A stretch of 62,404 nt of DNA, filler included, from Planctomycetota bacterium (GTDB lineage: Bacteria; Planctomycetota; Planctomycetia; JALXBF01), in NCBI GenBank assembly GCA_026991575.1. It is 8 parts of 8 records of this genome, joined end to end, with 100 filler letters (N's around TTAATTAATTAA, not from the genome) between each part and the next. Parts side by side here need not be neighbours in the genome. Positions count along the whole stretch, not along the records: positions 1 to 14,964 come from JALXBF010000129.1; 7 more parts are not named here. The stretch is one strand, 5' to 3'. The position numbers were made by a program, and so were the translations under genes. The notes under the pieces are model-generated. The model searched no databases. It was not told the DNA's origin and worked only from the letters and a program-made list of their open reading frames with translations. This document shows positions 1 to 14,964 of this stretch, one piece after another; within the stretch, counting starts at the first letter, position 1, and each line of letters begins with the position of its first letter.

Positions 1-168
1 CGACCAGAGGCGTTCGGCATTCCCGCACCCCGTCCGTCGGGCGGAAGCCACCTGTGGCTATGGGCAGCCCTGTCCGCCCTCGGACTTCTCACCGTCCTGC
101 TCGCAGCGCGCCTGCTCGCCGGGAGGCGAAGCGCCAATTCGGAGAAACAGCAGCAAGCCGGAGCATGA
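1..168 (+). CDS. C-terminal end of a membrane-anchored exported protein, paralog of 9380-10312 (5' truncated by contig edge; absent from ORF track)
   Basis: Frame 1 reads RPEAFGIPAPRPSGGSHLWLWAALSALGLLTVLLAARLLAGRRSANSEKQQQAGA*, matching the tail of 9380-10312 (SPEAFGIPSPIPEKLSRLWLWVLLALLLLLSALILARLARWR). Confidence 0.8.
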   Translation, partial: RPEAFGIPAPRPSGGSHLWLWAALSALGLLTVLLAARLLAGRRSANSEKQQQAGA

Positions 169-357
169 CCTGGATAAGCTGACGTACGTAGAGACACGTC
201 GCGGAATCCGCTGACAAGGTTCCGCAGCAGAAAACGATCGGCAACGACGGCCGTCAATCCGTTTGTTTTTCGGCATGGCACAAGGTGGCGGATCTGACTC
301 CGCGACCAGGTGGCAGCCGAAAGTAACGCGAGTATACGCTAACTGACGGGGGAAACG

Positions 358-906
358 ATGTGTGAGTCGCGGCGTGCTCTATGTAGCGGGTCGCCGGGGC
401 AAGTCGAAGTATCGTTTCAGCCTCGAACGTGGCAGCGAGGGCGAACTGTGATGTGGGCCGGAGCGCTTCTGATCACGTGGATTCTCGCAATCTCGGCCGC
501 CCGGTGGCACTGCGGTTCGTGGCGTGGGGTGTTGGAGGCGCTGAGAGGGCGGCCTGTCAGCGCCAGTGTTGTCCGCATTGAGCCTCAAGGTGACAAACAC
601 GTGGTCATCACCGTCAGATTGCGGAATCTGCTGCCGCGGACGCTGACCGTTCTGGGCGGGGACCCTGGGTGAGGCGCCCGTCTGGAAGCGGAGTTTCCGC
701 TGCGATTAGCGCCCGGAGATGAAACCAGCGTGCGGTACATTGTCCCTAACAGCTGGCTCGCAGACCGGACCCGCGATTTCGGGCCGGTGCTATACACCGA
801 TACTGGGGGCTCCTGTCTGGTGCGGGTCAACCGCCTGCCCGGGTTTAGTCGTCTGGCGCGGAGGTCACGCTCAGTCACCAGTTCCCGCAAACGATCGTCT
901 GACTGA
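358..906 (+). CDS. Candidate selenoprotein: membrane-anchored DUF1573-like Ig-fold protein with in-frame TGA at 670-672
   Basis: N-terminal TM segment, then RWHCGSW...VRLRNLLPRTLTVLGGDPG-TGA-GARLEAEFPLRLAPGDETSVRYIVPNSWL...FGPVLYTD. Aligns ungapped with the paralog at 10481-11092 on both sides of the TGA. Read-through ends at 906, 13 nt before the lnt start. Confidence 0.75.
685..702 (+). promoter_or_regulatory. Putative bacterial SECIS element
   Basis: Hairpin AGCGGA-GTT-TCCGCT (687-701) downstream of the TGA, with G in the apical loop. An outer GGCGC(673-677)/GCGCC(709-713) pairing is also possible. Confidence 0.6.
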
Positions 907-919
907 GCAGAGGTGGCGG

Positions 920-2563
920 ATGAACCCAGTGGGCACGGCGACGCACAGCCGCAAATCCGACTCCCTCAACGGGCAGTCGGGCCGCGCCGGTGCGGAACCA
1001 GGCAAACTCCTGGCCGGGCCTTGTAACGGCCGGAGGTTGCTGCGCTTGATAGCAGCCCACCTGGGATGGGCCGCGGCGACGCTTTTTGCATGGTGCGGGG
1101 TCTATCGCTGGGCCATTTTGATCGCCTCGGCCATTCTCTGGGTGCCCGTGCTAACCCAGGCCATACGGGGGCAGTGGCGCACGGGGATTGGCTTGGTGAT
1201 TGGATGCACGATCCCGACGGTGGCAGCACCGTACTTGTGGCATTTCGTGGGGTACCCGTACGGATACCTGGCCTACGCTGCAGCGTGCGCTTTAGTTGGA
1301 CTCCAGGTGGCGATAACTGCTGAGCTGTACGCGACGCTGGCCCACCGCCGTGTGCTACTGCTCACGGTGGGCCCCGCATCAGCGACCATGCTCGAGCACG
1401 GTCGTGCGTACTTTTTTGCGTGGCCCACGCTGCTGACTGCGACACCATCCGTTGGCGTCCCAGCCGGCCAGTTAGCGAGCATCGTCGGGCCGCTTGGTCT
1501 CACCTGGATCAGCTATGTGCTGCAAACGATTCTGGCCCTCGCGCTGACAGATCGCCGCAGGCGGTGGACACTGCTGGCGCTGTGGTGTGCGGCGCATGGG
1601 GTGCTAAACCTGGCGGGTGCGGCGCTTCGGCTCGAACCCGGTCAGAAGTCATTTCCCCTGCCCGCGGGCGTCTTACTTGTCCAGCCGGGCATCCGGACGA
1701 GCACCGATTCAGCAAATGCTGCCCCCGGAATCTCGGCCGCAGAGGCGGCGGCACGCATCACCGCTGCGGCACTGGAGCGGTACGAATCGCCGCTGATCGT
1801 GTGGCCAGAGACGACGCTAGGCACCGCGTACGTTCAAAGCCGTCCGGATGGGGGTCTGGAGCTGCTTGACACCGGCGGCCTGTTCTCAGTGGAACCGTAC
1901 GGCAGAATGCTCGCTCGCCGCGAAAACACCTACTTTATCGCCGGATTGTTCTTAAATTACCGCGACGCACGACTCACGAACGGGGCAGTGTCCATCGCGC
2001 CGGATGGCTCGCTGCAGTGGTACGAGAAGCGGACCCTTGTGTGGTTTCTTGAAACCATGCCGGCAGACTTTCTTTGGCTTGTACAGAGACTCAGGATCGA
2101 CACGGGGGGATTCAGGTGGCTGAGTCCGGGTTCTAGGCGGCCACCGTTCCGGTGCAACATTCACGGGCGGACAGTCGTCCTGCAGCCCGCCATCTGTCTG
2201 GAAAAGTACGTCTACTGGGGCTGGCCGGATCCGGATGAATCCGCCATCGACGCGTTTGTACACATCGGGAACGAATCGTACTTCGCCGCACATTCGTATC
2301 TGCTGATCGAACATCGCTGGGCGATACGTATGAGGGCGATCGAGTCAAGACGGTGGCAGTTCTCGGCCCAGACGTACCGCGGCTCTTGTGTCGTCGATCC
2401 GTCCGGTCGCATTCTCGCGCAGCTACCGCCGGGGCCCGGGTGGCTGTTTGTGTCGGAAAGCGGCGTAGAAACGCGGCATTTCTCGCTGGCCGAGCTGGAA
2501 GCGCTTCCCGAACCCGATGTGCACGACGAGGCCGTCAATCGTGAGCGGAGCCAAACACGTTGA
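920..2563 (+). CDS. lnt: Apolipoprotein N-acyltransferase-like protein (TM domain plus nitrilase/CN-hydrolase domain)
   Basis: Multiple TM helices, VLLVQPG, and catalytic triad motifs IVWPET (E), YEKRTLV (K), ICLE (C), plus MRAIESRR. ATG 920 preferred over the ORF-track start 719. Confidence 0.8.
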   Translation: MNPVGTATHSRKSDSLNGQSGRAGAEPGKLLAGPCNGRRLLRLIAAHLGWAAATLFAWCGVYRWAILIASAILWVPVLTQAIRGQWRTGIGLVIGCTIPTVAAPYLWHFVGYPYGYLAYAAACALVGLQVAITAELYATLAHRRVLLLTVGPASATMLEHGRAYFFAWPTLLTATPSVGVPAGQLASIVGPLGLTWISYVLQTILALALTDRRRRWTLLALWCAAHGVLNLAGAALRLEPGQKSFPLPAGVLLVQPGIRTSTDSANAAPGISAAEAAARITAAALERYESPLIVWPETTLGTAYVQSRPDGGLELLDTGGLFSVEPYGRMLARRENTYFIAGLFLNYRDARLTNGAVSIAPDGSLQWYEKRTLVWFLETMPADFLWLVQRLRIDTGGFRWLSPGSRRPPFRCNIHGRTVVLQPAICLEKYVYWGWPDPDESAIDAFVHIGNESYFAAHSYLLIEHRWAIRMRAIESRRWQFSAQTYRGSCVVDPSGRILAQLPPGPGWLFVSESGVETRHFSLAELEALPEPDVHDEAVNRERSQTR

Positions 2564-2645
2564 AACCGGCCCGGGCGCCATCGATAGCCGGCCCGGCCAG
2601 GTCAGGACGCCCACTACGTCGAGGGGTACCGGACGCGTCTGCCCC

Positions 2646-4127
2646 GTGAAGCTGTCGATCGTCATTCCTGCCTACAACGAGGACCGGCGGCTCGTTGCCC
2701 ATCTCACGCGGCTGCTCTCCGAACTCAAGCGTGTGTACGCTTCAGCCTTTGAAGTGATCATTGTGGATGACGGAAGCAGGCAGCCGGTCGAATGTGTTCT
2801 TGGGGAGCTGAGCCGGGAACCGGCCATCCGCGTCATCCGACATGCGGAGAATCGGGGCAAGGGAGCGGCGCTTCGCTCAGGATTGCTCGCTGCGAGGGGA
2901 GCCATTGTGGTCTTCGCCGACGCTGACGGCGCCACACCCCCTCCGGACCTGATCCGGCTCGCCCGTGCCATCGATCGAGGTGTTGATCTTGCCATCGGAT
3001 GCCGTGTTCGAGGTGCAGCGGCAGGCAAGGTGCACCGCCACTGGTACCGCCGCTTTGGAGGACGTCTGTTCGCTACGGTGGCGCGCTGGTTCACCGGCTG
3101 CCCCGTGGTGGATCCTCAGATCGGTTTCAAGGCGCTACACCGCGGGCGCGTCCTACCGGTGCTCCAGCAGGTCCAGGAGCGGGGCTACCTCTTCGATCTC
3201 GAGCTGCTCACCCTCGCGTGGAAGGCCGGCTTGAAGATTCGCGCGATGCCGGTGGCCTGGTCGGAATGCCCGGGCTCACGGCTCCGTTTCCTCCGCGACG
3301 GGCTTCGGATGGTTGAGCGGCTTGTCTGGCTGGGGTACCGCCTACCACGACGAGGACGGAACTACGCCGAATCGCGGAGCCGTCGGTCGGATGACGGCGA
3401 GAGCCCTGGAAGTCCGGCCCCCCAGCGACTTGCGCGATCGAAGCACCTGTTTACGGCACGGCGCTGGTGTTACGACGGTTTCCTCTTGCATCGCTGGTTT
3501 TTCCTGCCCACATACCGCGTCGCCCTCCAGCACGTCCGCTGGCCGGACCACGGATGGGTGCTCGACGTAGGCTGTGGCAATTCGGCCTTCCACCGATTCC
3601 TCACTCTGTCAACGCGCCAGCGCCTGACGTATGTCGGCCTTGATCCCGTGCCGCGCAGTGAGCACGGGCTTCTTGTCAGAGGGGAGGCAGAGCGACTGCC
3701 GTTCCGACACGACACCTTCGACGTCGTCGTGTGCTTCCATGCGGCCCACCACTTCTGGTCCGTGGGCCGCGGGTGCCATGAGATGGCACGAGTCGTTCGC
3801 GAAAACGGCGTCGTGGTCGTAGCCGACGGAGATATCAACTGCTCCTGGGGCCGAATCCTCCACAGCGGCATTGTCCGATCTATAGAGCGAGACGTTCGCT
3901 TCCTAACACATGAGCGATGGTTGCGTCTGTTCGGAAAATGTGGCCTGCAACTGGAGCAGTCGCTCGTACTTGCCGGCGCCGCACCCGTTCGGGTCTGGAT
4001 CACACGGAAGAACCCCCGAAACAGAAGGAATGAACAGGCGAAAAGCACTGATGGCACGCCGCGGACGCAGGAGGGAGAGCGGCGAGAGCCCGTCGCTGCA
4101 CTTGGCCCGAGGGGGGAAGCGAAGTGA
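2646..4127 (+). CDS. GT2 polyprenol/dolichyl-phosphate sugar synthase-like glycosyltransferase fused to a class I SAM methyltransferase
   Basis: LSIVIPAYNE, IIVDDGS, NRGKGAA, FADADG, GFK, FDLELL; C-terminal half has VLDVGCG and AERLPFRHDTFDVV. Start GTG 2646 is inferred (ORF open from 2517). Confidence 0.85.
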   Translation: MKLSIVIPAYNEDRRLVAHLTRLLSELKRVYASAFEVIIVDDGSRQPVECVLGELSREPAIRVIRHAENRGKGAALRSGLLAARGAIVVFADADGATPPPDLIRLARAIDRGVDLAIGCRVRGAAAGKVHRHWYRRFGGRLFATVARWFTGCPVVDPQIGFKALHRGRVLPVLQQVQERGYLFDLELLTLAWKAGLKIRAMPVAWSECPGSRLRFLRDGLRMVERLVWLGYRLPRRGRNYAESRSRRSDDGESPGSPAPQRLARSKHLFTARRWCYDGFLLHRWFFLPTYRVALQHVRWPDHGWVLDVGCGNSAFHRFLTLSTRQRLTYVGLDPVPRSEHGLLVRGEAERLPFRHDTFDVVVCFHAAHHFWSVGRGCHEMARVVRENGVVVVADGDINCSWGRILHSGIVRSIERDVRFLTHERWLRLFGKCGLQLEQSLVLAGAAPVRVWITRKNPRNRRNEQAKSTDGTPRTQEGERREPVAALGPRGEAK

Positions 4128-5839
4128 CGGAGAAAACCGTGTCTCCTTGCACCAGAACGTCGTGGCGACCGCTGGCCCTAGTACTGTTGGCTGCCACGTT
4201 GGCCAGGATCAATCCCTGGACGGATGACATCTGTTTCTGGAACGACGAGGCGTTTAGCTGGGCGGTCGCCTCTGCCCCCTTCGATGAGATGCTGCAGATG
4301 GTGGCAGGCGATACCCACCCTCCAGGGCACTACGTGCTCTTGCACGCGTGGATCAGGATCGCCGGCGACAGTATCTTCGCCATGCGATTCCTGTCGGGGC
4401 TGTTCTCTCTGGCAAGCGTCGTCTGCGTGTATTGGTTCACGCGGGAGGGCTTCAACGGCACTGTTGATCGTCCGACCGACCTCGCCCTCGCAGGGACGCT
4501 GCTGGCGGCAATCAATCCAGCCTGTGCGAGCACGGCCTACATGGCAAGGATGTACGCGATGCTCATGTTCGGAACGATGCTCTGCGCTCTGGGCTGCGTC
4601 ATGGTACTTCGGGGCCCCCGCAACCTGCTCTCCTGGGCCATGTGGGTCGTCGGAGCTCTGGTGGCGGTTTATTCCCACAACTATGGCATGTTCGTGCTCG
4701 CCGGGTCGGGAATCTGGCTGCTGGGCGCAAGTCTCACGGCGTGCCCATCGGAGCGGGCGATCATCTTTCGCAGGACGATCCTTGCCGGATTGCTCGTGGC
4801 GCTTTGCTACGCCCCGTGGGTACCGGTGCTGGTGTCGCAGGCCAGACGTGTAAGCGGGGGTTTCTGGATTCCCCCGATGCGTTTGGATCAGGCGGCTGGG
4901 GTTGTCGCTCAGCTGTTTAGCGAGCCGCTCAGCGCACTCACATGGGCCCCCCTGACAGGCGGGCTGCTGGCGGCAGCTGGCCTGGCCTTTGCACTCATGC
5001 TCTTGATCCCCTGGTTCGGATCAGCAGTGGAGTGGGTGTTTCTTGCGATGGCGGTGGCACACACCGTGGGCATCCTGATCGGAACCCTGGTGCTGCGTCA
5101 GAGCGTCTTTGAGTTTCGCTACCTGGTCCACCTCGTTCCGCTCGCCATGGTAGCCCTGGCAAGCCGGGCATTCGTGCTTCAACGGGGATTGCTCCGCACC
5201 CTTGTGCTGGGGGTGTTCGTCGTTATGGTCGGGTGCTCGGCGATAGCAGTTCTGCTGCAGAGGGTCCAGGTACGAGAAGCAGCAAGGGAAGCCGCAACCG
5301 AGGTTCGCAGACGTGCTATGGCCGGTGACGTCGTGCTGGGAGGCCCGGATTGCTTTTTCCGGATCAAGTATTACCTGACCCACCCTCCTGTTCCGGTTGA
5401 GTTTGCTGTTTACGCTCCGTCGCTCCGAGAGAAGGATCAGCGTCTCGTCGTATACGCGCCCGCTTTACTGCGCGAGCACTACGTGCTGGATCTCGACGCG
5501 GTGCGAGGTGATCGAGTGTGGGTGGTGGCCTCCCATTACTATGCTGGATCCCTGATGAGATTGCCCGGGTACAAGGTGCAGTGGGCCGAGTCATACACAG
5601 ACGTGGGCTGTGCCGACACCAGGCACATGATTGTCGCCCTGTTCACTCGCTCCGCACCGGTCACTGATCGTAGACCGGCAGCGGGACAAGGGGACCTTTT
5701 CGGAACGAGTGGGGAACCGGTAGGCAAGTCCCGGAAATCATCGGAGAAGAACCGGAGTACCCGCTCGGCAGCACGCACTACGTCCGTCAATCTCAGCCCC
5801 GCGTCCCCTGCCGGGCCTGGCAATCCGGACGGTCGCTGA
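4124..5839 (+). CDS. GT-C fold membrane glycosyltransferase (PMT_2/ArnT-like, GT39/GT83 type)
   Basis: WNDEAFS, DTHPPGHYVLLHAW, RFLS, ARMYAM, YSHNYG, YAPWVP and many TM helices. Start overlaps the upstream stop (GTGA). Confidence 0.85.
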   Translation: MTEKTVSPCTRTSWRPLALVLLAATLARINPWTDDICFWNDEAFSWAVASAPFDEMLQMVAGDTHPPGHYVLLHAWIRIAGDSIFAMRFLSGLFSLASVVCVYWFTREGFNGTVDRPTDLALAGTLLAAINPACASTAYMARMYAMLMFGTMLCALGCVMVLRGPRNLLSWAMWVVGALVAVYSHNYGMFVLAGSGIWLLGASLTACPSERAIIFRRTILAGLLVALCYAPWVPVLVSQARRVSGGFWIPPMRLDQAAGVVAQLFSEPLSALTWAPLTGGLLAAAGLAFALMLLIPWFGSAVEWVFLAMAVAHTVGILIGTLVLRQSVFEFRYLVHLVPLAMVALASRAFVLQRGLLRTLVLGVFVVMVGCSAIAVLLQRVQVREAAREAATEVRRRAMAGDVVLGGPDCFFRIKYYLTHPPVPVEFAVYAPSLREKDQRLVVYAPALLREHYVLDLDAVRGDRVWVVASHYYAGSLMRLPGYKVQWAESYTDVGCADTRHMIVALFTRSAPVTDRRPAAGQGDLFGTSGEPVGKSRKSSEKNRSTRSAARTTSVNLSPASPAGPGNPDGR

Positions 5840-6574
5840 CGGGGCGACCCTGTCCATGCTGGCACCGCACACGCAATAGGATCCCGCACGTCGGCAGCGC
5901 GTCGGATGAGTTGGCATTCCAGTTCTCTGTTCCTGGCCACGTGTTCGCATCCCTGACCAGTTTTGTGCAGGGTTCATTGCCTGTCTCTGACCGCCCTCGA
6001 GTTGGCCGGAGGCGGTCGAATCAGGGGAGCTGTCGCGACGCGGTCTGGGCCAGGACGGACCAGTCGTTACGCCAATCATTGCCACCTGTCCGGCGCCCAC
6101 GGCCAGCAGGGCAGCCCGGTGTGACCCGTAGCAAGTAGTTGTGCTGAGCAAACAAGACGGCGCGACAGAATCGGTTGAAGGCAGCGAAAGGACACGTCAG
6201 CCGGAGGAAGAAGCGATCAACGGTCGTGGCGGTCTGCTCCCGCGCAGCGTCCCGACAGGGTCAGAACGTCGTTGATGCTGGCAACCAGGCCGTCGGGAGG
6301 CGTCCACGCGGCGGTTCTGGCGGCAGCGTCCGCGGCTGCCAGGCTTCTGGCGTTGCCTGCCCTGTTAGCATTGCGGCAAGCACGGAAGCGCTCGAACTCC
6401 GGCATGTGAGCCAACGCTTGTACCAGCGGGAACACCCCAGCTGAGGCCAACGCGGAAGCCTGGCCAAGACCTTGGCTGGCAAGCCGAAGCCTCGATGCGT
6501 GAGGCCTTGACAAGGAGACGGAGAATCCGCTGTATCATCGAGTAAGTTGCCTGTGCCAGTTGAGCAGATACGTC

Positions 6575-6809
6575 ATGCGGTGGTTCGTACTCAGCTGCGC
6601 TCCTTTCGGACTTGGTCGGGCTGGGGCTAGTTCTGGCTGCGGCAAGTGTGGTTGCGGCAAGATCTTCAATATCACCCAACGCAGCCGTTGGCGGCTGGAA
6701 GCCCTCAAACCCGAATCCATGTGGCCTGCGCACGAATGACTGCCAGCGCCAGGGCCAGCTATCGTGTCGGTGGGATTCCACCAAGAATGAGCGCCACTGC
6801 AAGAAGTGA
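6575..6809 (+). pseudogene. Small secreted Cys-containing peptide, possibly frameshifted
   Basis: 6612-6809 encodes hydrophobic VGLGLVLAAASVVAA then C-x6-C-x7-C-x10-C, ending 25 nt before the partner gene. An upstream ATG (6575, MRWFVLSCA) is in another frame. Confidence 0.4.
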
Positions 6810-6834
6810 GAAGTGAGGACTGGAGGCAATCTTC

Positions 6835-7878
6835 GTGCACCGCATCTGCTTCCTGTCGCTGTTTGTGACGGCCGTCCTCGTACGGAGCATAGCCGCTGGC
6901 GACGAAGGAGGGGCGTGTGCCGGTATCCTCCCGAACGTCCGGCAGCACGCCAACCGGTACCTAGCGCGCCTCGAGGGGCGGGAATTCCACGTGCGGCAAC
7001 GTTGGGAGACGACCTGGCACGTCCCTCAGCGCCGCGGCACCACCGTGGAAAACGACTCGGTGGTCGAAAACGACTTCTGGGTCTGCTTCCGACTCCGGCA
7101 CCAACAGCTCCGCATTGTCAAAGAGCACCGCGATTCGGGCGAACGCCACGTTTTCCTGCTGAACGCACGGTACGCAGCCAGCCTCCGTTCTATTGCTGGT
7201 CACCAGTTCATAGTGACTCAGGTACGGGCAACGCCCCGTTGGACCGGGCCATATCCCGATTTCTACGCTACGGGACTGCCGCCGGGACGTCCGGAGGACG
7301 CTCCGCTGGCCGTACTGGCTCCGGTTGTCGCTAACGGCCTTCCGGTCGCAGTAGCACTGGAAGACACCGATGCGTTCTCCATCAGTTGCAGAAGGACACC
7401 AGACGGCCTGGTCGCAATCCGGTGCGTGACGAAGGTGGAACGTCCACAGTTCTTCGCCTGGCGTGACTCCTGGCGGCAGATTCTTCTCGATCCAAAGCAA
7501 GCCTACGCAGTTGTCCGCTCCAGGACCGTGTACAGCAACTCGGCAGAGGTCATAACCGAAGTGACGTATTCGGCCGCACGCGCGGCTGAGCCCGTCTCGT
7601 ACCGATGGGAACAAACGGTGACAACGCTCGTTGACGGCAGGAAACGTGTCCTCCAGCACGATGTGATCGACAATATGATCCTTGAGTCCAGGCCATGTTG
7701 CCACCCGGCTGAAGCGTTTTACTTGCCGTACTACGGGATTGACGAGTCGTCGATTGAGCAGACCTCCAGCGGTCGGGTGATCGCGCTGGCGGCAGGATCC
7801 GTCACCGCCCTGCTCATCGCCCTGCTGGCGCTGCTCGCACTGCGATGCGTAACGCACCGCGCGAGCAGTGAGGGTTGA
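6835..7878 (+). CDS. Exported beta-rich protein with C-terminal membrane anchor (LolA-like partner family), function unknown
   Basis: Signal peptide MHRICFLSLFVTAVLVRSIAA, ILLDPKQAYAV motif, and tail PAEAFYLPYYGI + TM + basic residues. Confidence 0.75.
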   Translation: MHRICFLSLFVTAVLVRSIAAGDEGGACAGILPNVRQHANRYLARLEGREFHVRQRWETTWHVPQRRGTTVENDSVVENDFWVCFRLRHQQLRIVKEHRDSGERHVFLLNARYAASLRSIAGHQFIVTQVRATPRWTGPYPDFYATGLPPGRPEDAPLAVLAPVVANGLPVAVALEDTDAFSISCRRTPDGLVAIRCVTKVERPQFFAWRDSWRQILLDPKQAYAVVRSRTVYSNSAEVITEVTYSAARAAEPVSYRWEQTVTTLVDGRKRVLQHDVIDNMILESRPCCHPAEAFYLPYYGIDESSIEQTSSGRVIALAAGSVTALLIALLALLALRCVTHRASSEG

Positions 7879-9117
7879 GCCTCTATTCCGGGCCGAGTAG
7901 CCCTTGCCAGGCGGAGCGCACCGGACGGTCCCAAGTCCTTCCTAATGGGGCTGCTCTGTGTGTCCGCCTTATCACTTCCGCGTCCTGGAACGCGTCCCGT
8001 TGAGCCACAGACGCTAAAGAGATAGTCTTGACTAGGAGGAGGAGGATAATAGAGTAGGCACCGCGAGCGGCCAACGGTTTCCGCACGACGGAGGGGGAAG
8101 CCGCGGACGCGATCCATGGCAACGCTGAACCGGGGGACATGCAACGCGACGGGCGCCAGTAGGCAACGCCAGGCGTGGTCAGGCAATTCCTTCCTGGCTG
8201 GCCTGCCGTGCACCAACGGCCCTACGCTGCCGTTCTCCGGGGAAGCGGTCAAGATCAACCAGCCAGCGAGGAAAGGTTCCGTTCCCGTGTCGCTCCTGGG
8301 CGGGCAACCTGCCCCACTGCCGGCGGTCCTTGCATTTGCCAGGATGGCTGCCGGCATCTGGCCCGGACCTACTCGTTCTGCTCGCGTCCTCCGTGCCTTC
8401 GCGTGGCTGTACCTCATGCTAACGGCGATGGCGCCCGGATCATTTTTCCGTGGCAACAGACCTTTCGGTTGGCCGGGTCGCTCCAGCCTACCTCCGGGAG
8501 TCCGAACGCCGGTTGACCTAGCGCTCGCCATCGGTCCAGGAACAACCAGTACGCCACCTCGGGGCTCCGCGTCCCACCTCGGGTTGGCGACGATAGCTCT
8601 TGCGCCGCTCGTTGCGGACCCAGGTCTCGTACCTGTGGATGCCTATCCCGGTCTCACCGACGCGTTGCTGGCACGGCAATCACGTGTGGCCGTAGAGTTG
8701 CCGCCGGGTACCAGCTTCCGACCGTACCTCTTCCTGGGACGACAACCTCGCACGTGCAACCCGAGTCAGAACAACCCGGTGCTCCTGTTAGGTCCAAGCG
8801 ACTGTCTCCCATGTAGACAAGTCTTAGACCTTCCCCAACCCGCTAGCCACATCGGCTGCGGGACGGTAGCATGCTGTATCGTCGGCAACGGGCAAGTTGC
8901 TAGGAATGCCATCACCGGATCCGTTGGCGCCCTTCTTGCACCTCGGGACAGCGTCATGCTCACCGGTAGCCTACCAGCCATCCTTTTGGCCACTGACGGC
9001 ACGGCCAGCGACTCTGCGATGAGCATTCGAGACTTGCTTGTTACCGGCTCAGCGTGCAGTACGATCCGCGCCATGCGCGCACGGAAGTCAGGTAGCACTT
9101 AGTGGAGGTGATGCGTG

Positions 9118-9375
9118 ATGTTGACCAGACGCCAGGTCCGCTTCGCAATCTTAGGGCTTTCGGTAGGGACGCTGCTCGGTGTGTCATTTGCCGGTTACGA
9201 CGGCGCGAATACAAGGCCAGAGTGTCAGGAAACGCTCAGGGAGTGTGTAGAAGATCCGGCCCTCCATCTTTGCAAGGACAGTGTTCACCTGAAGCGGTGC
9301 GACGCCGATATTCCGGAATGCAAGTGCCGCGATGTTGCCACGCGTCCTCCATCCTGCGTATGTCGGAGGCCATGA
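9118..9375 (+). CDS. Secreted cysteine-rich peptide precursor (8 Cys)
   Basis: RBS GGAGGT at 9104-9109; signal MLTRRQVRFAILGLSVGTLLGVSFA; mature part C-x6-C-x8-C-x8-C-x6-CxC-x9-CxC; ends 4 nt before the next gene. Confidence 0.75.
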   Translation: MLTRRQVRFAILGLSVGTLLGVSFAGYDGANTRPECQETLRECVEDPALHLCKDSVHLKRCDADIPECKCRDVATRPPSCVCRRP

Positions 9376-9379
9376 GACC

Positions 9380-10312
9380 ATGGGAAGCCGCTCCCTCGCC
9401 CTGCTCTTGCTTGTGGCGCTCTGGTCTTCCCGATTAGATGGGCCAGCCTGGTGCGACGAGGTGCCATCGCTGGACGGATATCGGGTTGCCTGGCAGCGTT
9501 TGCTCGATACCTACGGAAACGCCATTTGGACCGTCTCCGTTGAAGGCGCGTCGGAAGAGCAACGCACGATCAGATTGCTCGCGCGTTGGCCTGCGGTCCG
9601 AGTGGAATGGATGCAGCCTGGTGGCACATTCCGTACGGCAGCGGTTTTCTCGCCGCAGGCCAGCTTTAGGGTGCGCAGGATAGGCAAAGACGACAAGTTT
9701 GCTCTGGAATCCTGGTCCCAAAGCGAACAGAAGCTGGCAGAGTTCTGGACCTATCCATCCAATGACGGCTGGCTCCCCTTTGCTGCACTCTCTTGGCTGG
9801 GCGAGCCGCTCGTTGACACCTTCGTCCGTCCGGACAAGGAGATTGTTCGGACTGAGTGGGTCGATGACGCTGGAGGGCGACAGCTGTTCGTAGAGATGCG
9901 GTTTCCCCAGTGGGCGGATAGCACGGCCGCGCGAGCCCGGTTCTGGTTCGCCCCCGAAAAAGCCTGGATTTTGCGTCGCTGGGAACTGTTCGCCGAGTCC
10001 GACCCGGAATCGGGGCGGGTGTGTGAGTTCAGGTATAGGGACGACCCTCGTGGAGTGCCGCTGGTGACATGGGGCCGGTACGGAGTCCGTGGTGGCCGCA
10101 CCCTGTGGGAGGCAAAAGTGCTTGAGGCAGAGTTGTCGCCGCCTCCGGAAACAGTTTTCAGCCCTGAGGCGTTCGGCATACCCAGCCCAATCCCCGAAAA
10201 GCTCTCGCGTCTGTGGCTTTGGGTGCTTCTGGCGTTGTTACTGCTCCTGAGCGCGCTAATCTTGGCACGACTGGCGCGGTGGAGGGCGACGATGACGGAC
10301 GTGGCGGATTGA
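9380..10312 (+). CDS. Exported beta-rich protein with C-terminal membrane anchor (LolA-like partner family)
   Basis: Signal MGSRSLALLLLVALWSS, FWFAPEKAWILRRW motif, and tail PPETVFSPEAFGIP + TM + RLARWR. Confidence 0.8.
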   Translation: MGSRSLALLLLVALWSSRLDGPAWCDEVPSLDGYRVAWQRLLDTYGNAIWTVSVEGASEEQRTIRLLARWPAVRVEWMQPGGTFRTAAVFSPQASFRVRRIGKDDKFALESWSQSEQKLAEFWTYPSNDGWLPFAALSWLGEPLVDTFVRPDKEIVRTEWVDDAGGRQLFVEMRFPQWADSTAARARFWFAPEKAWILRRWELFAESDPESGRVCEFRYRDDPRGVPLVTWGRYGVRGGRTLWEAKVLEAELSPPPETVFSPEAFGIPSPIPEKLSRLWLWVLLALLLLLSALILARLARWRATMTDVAD

Positions 10313-10480
10313 TTGCTCTTATAGAGTCGAGTTCCCAGCCCCACCGCTTCGTACGCTTCGTAGCCAGGTAGACTACATTGGTTGCCACCGCGGATCCTCG
10401 TCATAGGCACGGGGCGGCATCCGCGGCAGAAAACAGGGGATGGCGCGGCGTGGTGAGTCAGCACGTGACGGAGCCTGGAT

Positions 10481-11092
10481 ATGCCACTGAACTCGCCTGA
10501 GGTGTGCGAAGGGAGAACTCGGCAGTCCAATTCAACCTGGTTGGATACGCGTTCCGCCGTTTGGCTGAGCGTCTTGGCAGTGCTGTGGGTTACGGCTATT
10601 GTTGGAGTTCGTTGGCACTGCGGCTCATGGCCTGGCGTTCTCCTGGCACTGCGGGGCGAGGCGTTCTGCGCAGACATCGTGGAGATCGAACCAGCTGGAG
10701 AAGACGTCGTCGCCGTCACCGTTGCACTACGTAATCTTCTGCTCAAGACAACCACCATTTACGGTGCCGGCACTGGTTGAGCATCCCATGTCGAAGCGGA
10801 GTTCCCGCTTCCCGTCCAACCTCGGCAGACAGTCACTTTAAGATATGTGGTCCCGACAAGGTGGCTAACGGCACCGGGGATGAGGTTCGGGTTCGTACTG
10901 TACACGGACGTCGCAGGGAGTACCCGGATCGCGGTGAGTGATCTGATCGGGCCTGAACACGAGCACCAGCTGGACGGCTTACGGCGCGGCGCAGTTCCCT
11001 CGGTGTCGGGTGCGATTAGTGCCGACCCACGGCCCGTTTCCCCGACGGCGACCCCCCTCGACGGCCAATCGAATCCATCCACCGGGCGCTAG
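10481..11092 (+). CDS. Candidate selenoprotein: DUF1573-like paralog with in-frame TGA at 10778-10780
   Basis: Track ORFs 10481-10780 and 10847-11092 are in the same frame, separated only by one TGA: ...TTIYGAGTG-TGA-ASHVEAEFPLPVQPRQTVTLRYVVPTRWL...FGFVLYTD. True start may be GTG 10502 (MCEGR vs paralog MCESR). Confidence 0.75.
10793..10811 (+). promoter_or_regulatory. Putative bacterial SECIS element
   Basis: Perfect 7-bp stem GAAGCGG-AGTTC-CCGCTTC beginning after a 12-nt spacer from the TGA, same register as in the first paralog. Confidence 0.6.
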
Positions 11093-11937
11093 GTCGGCGC
11101 GGGACAGACCGTAACGATGAGGTGACTCGGTCACCCCTCCGATCAGGTCCGCATGGCGTACCACCTGAAACACCCGCGCAAGCGTGGCGTGCAGCCGAAG
11201 TCCATGCGGCAGATGGGTCGACTCGGGGGTAAGCGTCTCGTTCCTACGGCAGTACGTGTCTATTGCGCGAAGACTCCTCGCCCCACAGACGATCCATGGC
11301 GCCGGCACGCCTAGGCTCACCAGCGGATAGCGTAGCTCTGTAGGCTGCCCCGCTCGACCGGCACTGGCTACGGACGTCCACACAGTGCGCACCGCGAGGA
11401 CGCTGACACTCCTGCGCCCTCCTCGGTCCTACACGACTGAAGCCGACCAATTCGCCCTGCCTCTCCTCCAACGCAGCCCCTGACCGGAGTGTCCGTACAC
11501 GAGGTCGAAGAGCGCCAGCCGTGATGATGCCCCCCAACAACAGCTCCGGCGGCATGTTCGCAGCGTCTTTCAGGCTACGCGCCAGCGACTAGCGAAAGCT
11601 CTCATCCCCCTAACCGTTCCCTGCAGGCATGAGGTTCCCCGACGCGCCGGCACCTGCGCGGCTGGCTGGAGCACGGCTTGGCAAGCAAGCAGTGGACTCC
11701 GTGACGGACCAGAACAGTGCCGGGGAGTGCTGAAGCGATGATGCTCCCATGTCGACCACGAAACGACGTACGCTTGCGCCCGCCGGGCCGCCCGGCGCCA
11801 CCCCGGCTGCACACGCGCACCTGTCGCCGAGAGGCAATCCGCCGACGATCGAACCAAAGATGTCACGGCGAAGCAGGCTAGCCGCATCATCCCCCTCCCT
11901 CCAGCAGCGGTAGTCTAAGGCACTGCTCGATCGACCG

Positions 11938-13299
11938 TCACGCGTCCTGTTTCCGGCGCCGCCAACGTAACCATACCAGAAACGCCACCACTGCCAAGAA
12001 CAGCGCAGCAACTGTCAGCGGAACCAAAAAACTTCCACGGCCCCCGCCCATCCGAAGGAACCACGCCATTCGGGCGCGAGCACGGGCTACCGCTTGCTTC
12101 CTGAGCCGCTCAAGCTCGTGAGGATCCCGGCGAAACGGGTATGCCACGTGCGCCCAGCCCGGCCTAAGCGGATGACGCAACCACCGAAAATCGACAACGA
12201 TTGTCCGTTCCTCGGGGACACCATCCAGAAAGAGGTTGCGTAACTCCTCCTTGCTAACCTCGCGCCACTCGGCTCTCCTCACCACGTACACCAGCGTCTC
12301 GGGTACGTTCTCCTGGTAACTGCTCCGATCATGCACTCGCCGCCAGCGGAATGGGAGCCACACGCGCTCGCCTAGTTGGCGATAGTCGGTAAACTCGTCC
12401 ACCGCGAGCAGATGCCGCTTCACTACGCAGTACCACTCTCTGCGCACCGGCAAGTAACCGTACTTCGGGGCCAGCCACAGCGTCGTCGCATCCGCCTCGA
12501 CCACGATAAGGCCGCTATCGGGCTCGACACTGATTGTCTGCGCTTCCCGGACAAGCACTGGAAGCGCGGCATCGAAGAATCTCCGGTGCACAAACCCGCG
12601 GTCTTTTCGCCTCAAGGCTCTAAGTCTGGCCGAGTGGCGCTCCTGCGACAAGAGTGGAACGGACGCATCTCCCATTGAAGGGCGTTTCCCGGGAAACCGA
12701 GGTCCGATCCAGATCGGCTCCCCATTCTCCCAGACAACGCACGCGCCAATGGCACACAGCAGCCCAGACCTGTGGTAGACCGACCTTGCCTTGTGACCCC
12801 ATAGTGGATCGCGAACGTTCGCAATGTTGAGGTTCGCGTACCTGGTTAGGGGCCTTTGCCCCTGCAACCAGGCGAGCACGTCAGCCCCTTCTGGTGGCGC
12901 ATCCTGGGCACAGACATAGTCGGCCGCAACCAACTCCCACACGGCACCGTCCAACACCATTCCTCCGCGCACGTGTGCACGGACCTTCCCTTCACGTACG
13001 CTGGCTAGCGCATACAAGGCCGCCGCGGCACTTTCTCCCGGCGCATTGAAGTAGGCGAGAAGCGACCAAGGCCTTCGGTCGGCAGCCGCCGCGACGTCCC
13101 AACCGTCCGCGATGCATGCCTCGACAATCAGACCCTCGCCCAGACGGCGGAGCGTCCGCTCTACTGCATCCGCCACGCGCTGGCGTAGTACCCCATGGTC
13201 GTCGTCACCATAAACGAAGGCTGCGGCCAACGACACCTGGCACGCTGCCAGTAGAACTCCCAACAATTGGAGGCACCGACACTCCATGAGCCACTGCAT
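11938..13299 (-). CDS. Exported protein with C-terminal membrane anchor (more distant member of the partner family)
   Basis: Signal peptide, LWLAPKYGYLPVRRE, DYRQLGERVWLP, and C-terminal TM followed by WRRRK. RBS GGGGGAG. Confidence 0.75.
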   Translation of the reverse strand: MQWLMECRCLQLLGVLLAACQVSLAAAFVYGDDDHGVLRQRVADAVERTLRRLGEGLIVEACIADGWDVAAAADRRPWSLLAYFNAPGESAAAALYALASVREGKVRAHVRGGMVLDGAVWELVAADYVCAQDAPPEGADVLAWLQGQRPLTRYANLNIANVRDPLWGHKARSVYHRSGLLCAIGACVVWENGEPIWIGPRFPGKRPSMGDASVPLLSQERHSARLRALRRKDRGFVHRRFFDAALPVLVREAQTISVEPDSGLIVVEADATTLWLAPKYGYLPVRREWYCVVKRHLLAVDEFTDYRQLGERVWLPFRWRRVHDRSSYQENVPETLVYVVRRAEWREVSKEELRNLFLDGVPEERTIVVDFRWLRHPLRPGWAHVAYPFRRDPHELERLRKQAVARARARMAWFLRMGGGRGSFLVPLTVAALFLAVVAFLVWLRWRRRKQDA

Positions 13300-14401
13300 T
13301 GATCTCCCCCACCCGGCGAACGGCCCGCTGGAGTACGAGTCCGCGCTAGCGCAGCCCCCAGCGAGCAGGTTCCCTGGAAACAGCTGCCCTCAATAAGGAT
13401 GCACAGTACGTTCCGTGCACGGGCGGCGGTTGCTGTAACCCGAACACGCCAACGCAGGAAAGCGTCGTATGGACGCACGCCACCAGTATACCTAACCCAC
13501 CGTAGCGTTGATCACACTGATCGTACGGGCATCGGCCGCCTGTCCGGTCCGGGGCAGCCTATCCGGCCGGCAACCTGTCCAGAGTAGATGTGCAATTCGA
13601 TTCCTTTGCCGCGTGCGTATGGGGCTCAATAGCGGGAACTAATTCTGGCCACCGGGCTCGTCATAGCCCACTTCTGGGAACACAACTCCTTGAGGTGACG
13701 TCTGACTGTCGGGTGCTCGTCGTCCTGCCGGTATCGCGGGGCGGTCGTCCGCGACGGTCATTCGGATGCCGTTGCGTTGGTCCGGGATCTCCCTTGCGCG
13801 GCGGAGCGTAGCTGTCCACAACGTGCTGGCTGGTCAGCACACGCCGGCAGAAGGGCCTCCTGGTGACGCTGACACGGAAACCCAGTGTTGAGCAAATGGA
13901 ATCGTGGAAGACGAGTCCAGCCGATGGCTGCAGAGGCTTGCGTCAACCGGTACGGAACGCGTACAAAGGAACGTCGCCGTTCGCGCACACGCAGCGCATA
14001 GACACATGCGGCGATGCCGTTCAAGAACGAGAGGCCCTGCTTGTGACGACAGCCAATCTTCCGGTTGATGACCGCATACCAAAACGGCCGCTTGGCCGTA
14101 GTGCTTGCCAGCTACATCTCGCAATCATACAGCAGCTGTCCCGCCGATGGCTGATGTCTGAGCAAATGGGGACACGTCCTTGCTCTCGCGTGCACATCAC
14201 GGTTCGTCTCTCATGCAGCTCGAGCAACACTTGCCTCGCACATCCTCAGAGCACACTTTCGATACGTGCGTGGTCTGATCGGCCTGCCACGAAACACGCG
14301 ATGAGGTAACAGGCTGGAGTTTTTCGCTGAAGACATCTTGCACAAAAAACGCCTCCGTGCCATAGGTTAGGAAAACCAAACCAAGAGCAGGGAGGCGAGC
14401 A

Positions 14402-14964
14402 ATGGCAAGAGAAAACTGGAAATTTTCGGACGCCTGTTGTGAGTAATTGTGGCAGTTCGCGGCGGATCTGGCAAGGCCAATTCTGAGGGAGGCGGCACGT
14501 TGGCTGGTACCGACGTTGATGCTTGGGCTTGGCCTTGCCGGTGCACCTCACCTGACGAGAGCGTTGCGCGCCCGCACTGCGTGGAGCGATGAGGACTTGA
14601 TGCGGTTGGAGAACGGAGCCTCTCGTCTGCTCCGTCAGCAGGCAAGTGATCGGGTGCCGGAGCCGCACATCGACCTAGTGATTGATCGTTACAAAAAGCT
14701 GGTGCTGAAGCAGTTACGTGAGCAGGTGCTGGTGGCGGTGGATGAGACGGATCTGTCGAAGCCGTGGACGAGACGTGTGGAGGGGTTGGGTCAGGTGAAG
14801 GACCACAGCGATCCGGCACGGGTGCTGCGTCCTGGGCACATGGCAGTGCTGGCAACGGCCGTGGAGCATGGTCGTCTGACGCCGCTGGATCTGGCTTTGT
14901 TGGCGGTGTATTCGGGTCGAGGGGACAGCGAGAACCGGGAGATGATCGCGTTTGTGCTTGGTGT
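14402..14964 (+). pseudogene. IS4-superfamily DDE transposase with premature stop, truncated by contig end
   Basis: RBS GGGAGG + ATG 14402 (MARENWKFSDACCE), in-frame TAA 14444-14446, then VAVDETDLSKPW..VEGLGQVKDHS..PGH and SENRE, typical of DDE transposase N-terminal regions. Confidence 0.7.

Follow-up and report, generated by a model that had tools for sequence, protein, structure and literature searches.

How should two related genes be read when each carries a stop codon inside its frame, at the same codon of both? This question is raised by a stretch of 62,404 nucleotides from a Planctomycetota bacterium (assembly GCA_026991575.1), here called the window, in which positions 1-14,964 are one contig (C129) of a draft genome of 4.96 Mb (64% GC, 97.8% complete) and everything beyond 14,964 comes from further contigs, separated by runs of N. 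Two paralogous genes on this contig, copy 1 and copy 2, have an in-frame TGA, and a preliminary description of the window proposed that both encode selenocysteine (Sec)-containing proteins. Taken as a whole, the evidence is very probably best explained in this way: each locus would be one genuine gene whose internal UGA is recoded to Sec, and the product would be a membrane-anchored periplasmic protein. We favor the Sec reading because the genome contains the machinery for Sec insertion, TGA has not been reassigned, the column of the TGA is an invariant Cys in the relatives, and a hairpin resembling a Sec insertion sequence (SECIS) follows the TGA. The conservation of the TGA itself and its position inside a single domain support the same reading.

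The two genes are clearly homologous on both sides of the TGA. The gapless alignment of 358-906 with 10481-11092, with the TGA at a shared codon, had been noticed by eye and is reproduced by BLASTP, in which the two read-through products are identical at 66 of 139 residues (E 3e-44) and the two TGAs fall in one column. The earlier hand counts, 32/56 identical residues in the segment beginning with RWHCGSW and ending at the TGA and 22/47 beyond it, were both exact on recount, and the codons for VLYTD in the two copies are as had been claimed. Copy 1 read through its TGA has 183 codons, the TGA being codon 105 (nucleotides 670-672); its own stop is also TGA (904-906), and ATG 451 provides an alternative start. 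In copy 2, the peptide across the site is GAGTG-U-ASHVEAEFPLPVQPR, and the tail of the protein is rich in Pro, Ser, and Thr, a region in which the confidence of the AlphaFold model is low.

Homologs lacking the TGA identify the residue that it replaces. A profile made from three Sec forms gave 68 matches at E<=1e-3 among 1.84 billion representative sequences, and the resulting alignment comprised 61 sequences, namely 4 Sec forms and 57 full-length Cys homologs, nine fragments as well as P0032 (799 aa) and P0046 (284 aa) being left out. The TGA column contains Cys, and not Trp or Arg, in 57/57 of the aligned Cys homologs. Only four columns of the whole alignment are invariant (N85, G95, C100, and P109). 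A third paralog in the same genome, on contig C63, has GAQASCNC at the Sec site and no stop. The column corresponds to the first Cys of a CxC motif, and the motif itself is altered in the Sec forms: the residues starting from Sec are U-G-A, U-A-S, U-Q-Q, and U-G-V, so that the second Cys is gone in all four. In addition, the membrane helix of the Sec subfamily ends with an invariant HCGSW motif, which is shared by at least one Cys homolog, P0015.

Genes with a TGA at this column are found beyond the window. With copy 2 as query, a gene with a single TGA was found in 2/2 genomes of the GTDB family. A class-wide search of 401 genomes gave matches at E<=0.01 in 25 of them, and the TGA is present at this column only in the genome of the window and in G001, a metagenome-assembled genome (MAG) of the same family and another genus. 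Among the other class-wide matches, L023, L032, L034, L036, L041, and L044 were set aside, their translations having no family motif, and the TGA of L025 was found to be an ordinary stop. When metagenomes were scanned, a single further contig emerged, L050, whose TGA falls in this column as well. In a scan of genome contigs, the G001 contig was the only good find, next to short, weak matches in a gammaproteobacterial MAG (L048) and in Nocardia (L049). The occurrence of TGA at the same column in G001 and L050 excludes chance.

The representative sequences also bear traces of such genes. Six of the seven best matches (P0006-P0010 and P0012) are 73-111 residues long and end one residue before the TGA, while the seventh, P0011, like P0022 and P0026, is a C-terminal fragment lying wholly past the TGA, and two of these three begin four codons after it. 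Automatic gene calls split these genes at the TGA. Public sequencing runs that contain this stretch are labeled as hydrothermal vent metagenomes, and one of them may be its source; no RNA run is listed among them. Furthermore, a hydrothermal vent metagenome from another study contains a contig that is about 94% alike over positions 300-1300, with 62 differences and one gap; none of the differences listed falls at 670-672, and 34 further differences lie outside that listing. The same contig has A>C at 662, which matches fragment P0008 (..GGAPG), a fragment that ends at the TGA. Two more vent contigs match only positions 663-701, which span the TGA and the hairpin, with 5 differences. Their flanks encode the tail of P0009 (..PTGVTVYGA) before the match and ..RLHPGQSITV after it, and judging from these flanks, the two contigs are a further member with a coding continuation. 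A separate observation concerns fragment P0012, which ends with ...LGTHTC right before its stop; in this relative Cys may directly precede Sec, forming a vicinal C-U pair.

The genome is equipped to decode UGA as Sec. The four genes sought for this purpose, selA, selB, selD, and that of tRNA-Sec, were all found, clustered on contig C184. The tRNA-Sec scores 73.3 bits against the Rfam model and is called tRNA-SeC(tca) by ARAGORN, SelA scores 484 bits, the C-terminal wing domain of SelB 70.7 bits, and selD 358.5 bits. The selD gene itself has a single in-frame TGA, in the context CAG-U-AGK. A tRNA-Sec is also present in G001 and in G310, a further genome of the class. Elsewhere TGA acts as an ordinary stop, as the preliminary description had stated: it ends the genes upstream of the two copies (166-168 and 10310-10312) as well as copy 1, and it is the commonest terminator genome-wide. 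Where an open frame has 400 codons or more, it ends with TGA in 851 cases, TAG in 677, and TAA in 309, and therefore there is no general reassignment of UGA in this genome.

Each TGA is followed by a hairpin. In all four full-length Sec genes (copies 1 and 2, G001, and L050), 12 nt after the UGA come first and are followed by (G/C)AAGCGG-AGUU(U/C)-CCGCU.., which folds into a stem of 5-7 bp with the loop (A)GUU(U/C). The loop starts about 19-20 nt past the UGA and has G at its first or second position, and the minimum free energy (MFE) of the first 40 nt after the UGA is -11.3 to -12.7 kcal/mol in 4/4 genes. RNAalifold, run on three of the genes, recovered a 6-bp hairpin. A lower stem, GGCGC/GCGCC, lengthens the structure in copy 1 to approximately 673-714, and this extension differs from gene to gene. 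The consensus of bacterial SECIS elements, as quoted in a review, is a loop of 3-9 nt on a stem of 4-16 bp, with G in the first two loop positions, a spacing of 16-37 nt, and an MFE of -7.5 or lower (PMC13188914). The hairpin agrees with this consensus in all four genes. The 15-nt core, AGCGGAGTTYCCGCT, has only 2 occurrences in the 4.96-Mb genome, each after one of these TGAs. Moreover, the codons used at identical amino acids in pairwise comparisons of the genes are themselves identical in 25/33 cases within EAEFPL, the segment encoded by the hairpin, compared with 42/148 before the TGA and 18/60 after it. This excess of codon identity indicates that the synonymous sites are constrained, as expected of an RNA element. 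In the proposed mechanism, SelB would bind the hairpin and bring Sec-tRNA(Sec) to the UGA.

Among the alternatives, the one that survives best is that a suppressor or near-cognate tRNA inserts Cys, Trp, or Gly at the UGA, or that the UGA mostly terminates translation, with the selenoprotein as a minor product. Sec insertion in bacteria competes with termination, which lends the second form some plausibility. However, the genome has a complete Sec system, on which selD itself relies, the hairpin matches the SelB-type consensus, and the prevalence of TGA among ordinary stops leaves no general reassignment to account for such reading. We therefore regard this alternative as quite unlikely.

Still less likely is that the genes are pseudogenes, each killed by a nonsense mutation. 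Gene callers do end the proteins at the TGA, as such an account would have it, but TGA stands at the same codon in paralogs whose identity is just 47%, and it recurs there in a different genus (G001), in L050, and in other clusters of fragments. No stop codon but TGA is seen at this site, which is the invariant Cys column, and the SECIS-like hairpin comes after it. The sequence past the TGA also retains the family motifs and a coding pattern: the copies are identical at 65, 72, and 37 of the 104 gapless core codons at the first, second, and third codon positions, respectively, as expected of coding DNA both before and after the TGA. Estimates of the ratio of nonsynonymous to synonymous substitution (dN/dS) after the TGA, 0.19-0.60 where computable by the NG86 method, are rough only. 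Together, these observations make decay of the genes scarcely credible.

Finally, the TGA lies within what is predicted to be one domain. AlphaFold2, run on the 61-sequence alignment, gave a model with a mean pLDDT (predicted local distance difference test) score of 83.6 and with 10-residue blocks at 90-97 over residues 31-150, consisting of a membrane helix (23-47), a short helix (50-57), and a beta-sandwich (62-151). Strands of the sandwich flank residue 100 on both sides, and the selenol is predicted to lie in the loop that connects strands E91-97 and E103-105. The segment past the TGA does not form a gene of its own, as the predicted immunoglobulin (Ig)-like domain and the profile alignment both cross the TGA and no start is conserved. 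The notion that each locus is two genes, one for a transmembrane (TM)-anchored N-terminal piece and one for a C-terminal piece translated on its own, has next to no likelihood, because the GTG that callers found four codons past the TGA in two relatives (P0022 and P0026) corresponds to CTG, GTC, or ACC in copies 1 and 2 and in G001, the TGA is inside one predicted sandwich, and 57/57 aligned Cys homologs are continuous there.

Single Sec-containing genes being the preferred reading, the topology of their products can be considered. A strongly hydrophobic N-terminal segment is present in 56/61 family members. The membrane anchor that had been proposed stands, with one N-terminal helix and a moderate positive-inside bias; the extracytoplasmic location is what we infer from these two features, which suggest a single-pass, N-in/C-out topology with the domain in the periplasm. 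The product would thus be a single-pass membrane protein whose beta-sandwich faces the periplasm. In VIA, the best structural matches of this sandwich are the Ig-like domains of ASH, MSP, HYDIN, and VesC (Z 7.6-8.6 over 83-91 residues), and the predicted fold is a generic Ig-like sandwich of the PapD/ASH/MSP type. A sequence search found no solved DUF1573 structure, its best match being a ciliary ASH-domain protein (E 0.0058).

Several results weigh against the reading as a whole or weaken parts of it. The synonymous rate is saturated or undefined in many of the NG86 comparisons, so that dN/dS past the TGA can serve only as a rough guide. The hairpin shows no covariation, with 0/6 pairs compensatory and the core identical in all four genes, and, at the 64% GC of the genome, windows of 66 nt fold no better than shuffled sequences (z -0.18 to -1.15). 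A Cys homolog, P0014 (SCCCQVEAEFPV), also keeps EAEFP, and the conservation of this motif is therefore partly at the protein level. The charge bias at the membrane helix is modest: Lys plus Arg are more numerous upstream of the helix in 38/61 sequences, fewer in 11, and equal in 12. The best structural neighbors are generic Ig-like domains (Z <=8.6), which carry no functional weight. In addition, the Pfam and NCBIfam models miss both window proteins.

This last point leads to the question of which family the genes belong to. The Cys relatives are DUF1573 proteins: 11/14 of those scanned pass the Pfam cut-off, with up to 43.7 bits, and in 4/14 a MauE domain is fused N-terminally. The Cys homologs also give matches to the Pfam family HYDIN_VesB_CFA65-like_Ig. 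The genome of the window itself has 10 DUF1573 domains that exceed the Pfam cut-off and are free of stops, as well as a paralog at 22.5 bits. Copies 1 and 2, on the other hand, have no Pfam match at E<=10 and so none to PF07610 (gathering score 26.1 bits), a genome-wide scan with PF07610 picks up neither Sec locus, and the G001 protein reaches 13.3 bits, which is under the cut-off. Nor do copies 1 and 2 and the G001 protein match any NCBIfam model at E<=1, NF041425 (curated cut-off 100 bits) included. A comparison of profiles is more sensitive to the relationship: when 4 Sec forms were aligned by hhalign with 8 DUF1573 Cys proteins that pass the Pfam cut-off, the probability was 98.1% and E was 7e-14 over 111 columns, which cross the TGA and pair U with the first Cys of CxC. 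The resemblance to DUF1573 and its C-x-C motif suggested in the preliminary description accordingly stands at the level of the superfamily, through hhalign and the Cys relatives, whereas at the level of Pfam the window proteins go undetected.

What did not stand is the proposal of an unannotated selenoprotein family, since the family has already been cataloged, as OS_HP2 and in NCBIfam model NF041425, "OS_HP2 family (seleno)protein". The reservation made earlier, that Sec versions of DUF1573 may be known from elsewhere, was well founded, as these are published as OS_HP2 with a UxC motif. OS_HP2 has been in the literature since 2007/2008. It was first reported among six new selenoprotein families in metagenomes of Olavius symbionts (PMC1976440), and the Global Ocean Sampling (GOS) study gave it as pfam07610 with UxC, 2 Sec sequences, and 354 Cys homologs (PMC2398784). 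Tables in two reviews list a DUF1573 domain-containing protein with the motif UGC (PMC9312934; PMC13188914), and the sections available of the same two reviews have no passage that places Planctomycetes beside DUF1573 selenoproteins, PMC13188914 containing 0 words that begin with Planctomyc. Like OS_HP2, the window proteins have a DUF1573-type Ig domain, Sec at the first position of CxC, and many Cys homologs. Unlike it, they lie beyond the PF07610 and NF041425 models and have A, S, Q, or V in place of the second Cys; they also have an N-terminal membrane helix, the invariant HCGSW, and a conserved neighborhood, OS_HP2 being compared here by its description only. With the Cys-form DUF1573 proteins of the same class, they share the TM helix, a GS..LRGE linker, and an Ig domain in which N, G, C, and P are invariant. 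However, the Cys forms have Cys, mostly as CxC, without a TGA, and some are fused to MauE, whereas the Sec forms have neither a MauE fusion nor a MauE neighbor on C129.

By these sequence comparisons, the window genes are a diverged Planctomycetota subfamily of a known selenoprotein family, and not a new family. What appears distinct here is their divergence past both models, the loss of the second Cys, the invariant HCGSW, and the gene neighborhood. They add a diverged branch to the DUF1573 selenoprotein family, one in which only the Sec of the UxC pair is left, and they leave knowledge of Sec decoding itself unchanged. They are also real genes that automatic annotation fragments and that would go unrecovered with Pfam or with the selenoprotein model of NCBIfam, and as a result, selenoproteome counts of this Planctomycetota lineage are too low.

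A different DUF1573 protein came to light in another family of the class. This protein of G310 (L024:1246-1815, on contig C71) has its TGA at the second Cys, in the context S-C-G-TGA, and scores 28.6 bits with PF07610 and 23.3 bits with NF041425; the tRNA-Sec of its genome scores 69.7 bits. No convincing small hairpin follows this TGA, and TGA-bearing orthologs number 0 in 61 genomes of its order. The protein could be a C-G-U selenoprotein variant or the product of a broken gene.

The features of the window that concern us here are collected in Table 1.

Table 1. Positions in the window of the two Sec genes, their recoded codons and hairpins, and the neighboring genes.
Feature	Positions	Strand	Description
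Sec gene, copy 1	358..906	+	TM helix at N-terminus, HCGSW, DUF1573-like Ig domain; 182 aa from ATG 358
In-frame TGA of copy 1, codon 105	670..672	+	Aligned with the invariant first Cys of CxC; read as Sec
SECIS-like hairpin, copy 1	685..703	+	GAAGCGG-AGUUU-CCGCUGC; starts 12 nt past UGA; encodes EAEFPL
Sec gene, copy 2	10481..11092	+	203 aa; architecture as copy 1
In-frame TGA of copy 2, codon 100	10778..10780	+	Aligned with the invariant Cys column; read as Sec
SECIS-like hairpin, copy 2	10793..10811	+	GAAGCGG-AGUUC-CCGCUUC; 7 bp, 5-nt loop; starts 12 nt past UGA
Family X gene, 3' end	1..168	+	Cut by contig start; C-terminal TM anchor; directly upstream of copy 1
Family X gene	9332..10312	+	326 aa; C-terminal TM anchor; directly upstream of copy 2
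Lnt-like gene	920..2563	+	CN_hydrolase 40.8 bits; directly downstream of copy 1
GT2 glycosyltransferase fused to S-adenosylmethionine (SAM)-methyltransferase domain	2517..4127	+	Domain matches
Polytopic membrane protein	4124..5839	+	Weak PMT_2 (GT-C mannosyltransferase-like) match, 21.6 bits, below cut-off 26.1

The most constant neighbor of the Sec gene is a gene of a family that we call X, found directly upstream in 4/4 loci. Members of X are approximately 300 aa long, with a C-terminal membrane anchor after an FGIP-type motif, and often stand in tandem: G001 has three tandem copies (L047 69-707, 900-2285, and 2840-3736) and L050 has two (51-653 and 1163-2158). The X members of the window, G001, and L050 are homologous by BLASTP (E 1e-7 to 1e-48). 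Searches of Pfam and NCBIfam with X gave no match. Its neighbors in the Atlas are Planctomycetota hypothetical proteins, the nearest named clusters being LolA/TP_0789-like at only about 0.82, and its AlphaFold model is poor (pLDDT 55.1). Judged by eye, the hydrophobic N-terminus of the complete X protein of the window is likely a signal peptide.

Downstream of the Sec gene the loci are more varied. A Lnt-like gene follows in 3/4 loci, and copy 2 is accompanied only by the X gene upstream; X plus the Sec gene therefore form the minimal conserved unit. The Lnt-like gene after copy 1, which encodes a membrane protein of the CN-hydrolase type, scores 94.6 bits against TIGR00546 (lnt), below the cut-off of 132.9. 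Its longest open reading frame (ORF) starts at 719, overlapping the 3' third of copy 1 in another frame, and its start is likely ATG 920, just past the copy 1 stop; an annotation that cuts copy 1 at the internal TGA could favor the over-long call. The Lnt-like gene, the GT2-methyltransferase gene, and the gene of the polytopic membrane protein follow copy 1 and the Sec gene of G001 in the same order. In L050, a Lnt-like ORF lies downstream, and after it comes an ORF with a MauE-like CGCFG motif, which is 1 kb downstream; both were recognized by eye. The genome of the window also has MauE (PF07291) within approximately 1 kb of DUF1573 (PF07610) at C104:26897-28068 and C151:855-2135, and this recurrent link, seen in gene order and fusions, may point to the function of DUF1573. 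The first contextual handles on that function come from this neighborhood (X, the Lnt-like gene, and the glycosyltransferases) and from the fusion of Cys relatives to MauE.

What might the proteins do? Our leading suggestion, whose chances of being right or wrong we regard as about equal, is that the Sec protein acts as a redox-active nucleophile in a thiol/selenol relay of the envelope. This suggestion is made because of the CxC ancestry of the site and because MauE-type membrane proteins, which have a CxC of their own, are often fused to the Cys relatives or encoded next to them. However, without the second Cys there is no obvious resolving partner, which weakens a simple redox reading of the CxC type. 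In that case the selenol would work by itself or together with the His-Cys of the juxtamembrane HCGSW, which is invariant in the subfamily. The Sec protein would work together with the anchored X protein encoded upstream, and one of the two copies would act within an operon of Lnt-like, GT2, and GT-C-like genes for envelope modification.

A second choice, possible but on balance unlikely, is a binding site for soft metals of the Cu/Hg type, proposed because of a weak resemblance to PCuAC domains and because of the His-Cys motif. PCuAC domains, the Cu(I) chaperone domains of PmoF1/2, AccA, and Streptomyces ECuC, are small periplasmic beta-sandwiches, as the Sec proteins are predicted to be, and they are the best Foldseek matches (6p1g_B, E 4.1e-4, TM 0.51 by target). 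The match is weak, carries no functional weight, and cannot be told apart from those to other Ig folds, with a VIA Z of 7.5 (3zk0) versus 8.6 for the unrelated ASH/MSP domains.

A more specific form of the envelope hypothesis seems rather improbable to us, though not negligibly so: a lineage-specific, extracytoplasmic lone-selenol protein, with its resolving partner outside CxC, would form an obligate pair with X, for which there is only a weak LolA/RseB-like lead, and take part in the selenium-dependent maturation of envelope lipoproteins or glycoproteins together with the Lnt-like, GT2-methyltransferase, and GT-C-like genes. The resolving partner would here be the juxtamembrane His-Cys or, in one relative, the Cys directly before Sec. 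Such a role has not been described for any selenoprotein in the literature consulted, in which no dedicated search was made. If it were true, there would be a selenium-dependent step in the maturation of planctomycetal envelope lipoproteins or glycoproteins.

Two minor observations concern the regions around the X genes. In L050, a small Cys-rich ORF of 114 aa (L050:712-1056), without a counterpart in the window, lies between the two X copies. In the window, the intergenic regions upstream of copy 1 and copy 2 share a short block, TCCGCRGCAGAAAAC, at 221-235 and 10424-10438, the rest being unalignable, and this block may serve the duplicated cassette as a promoter or operator.

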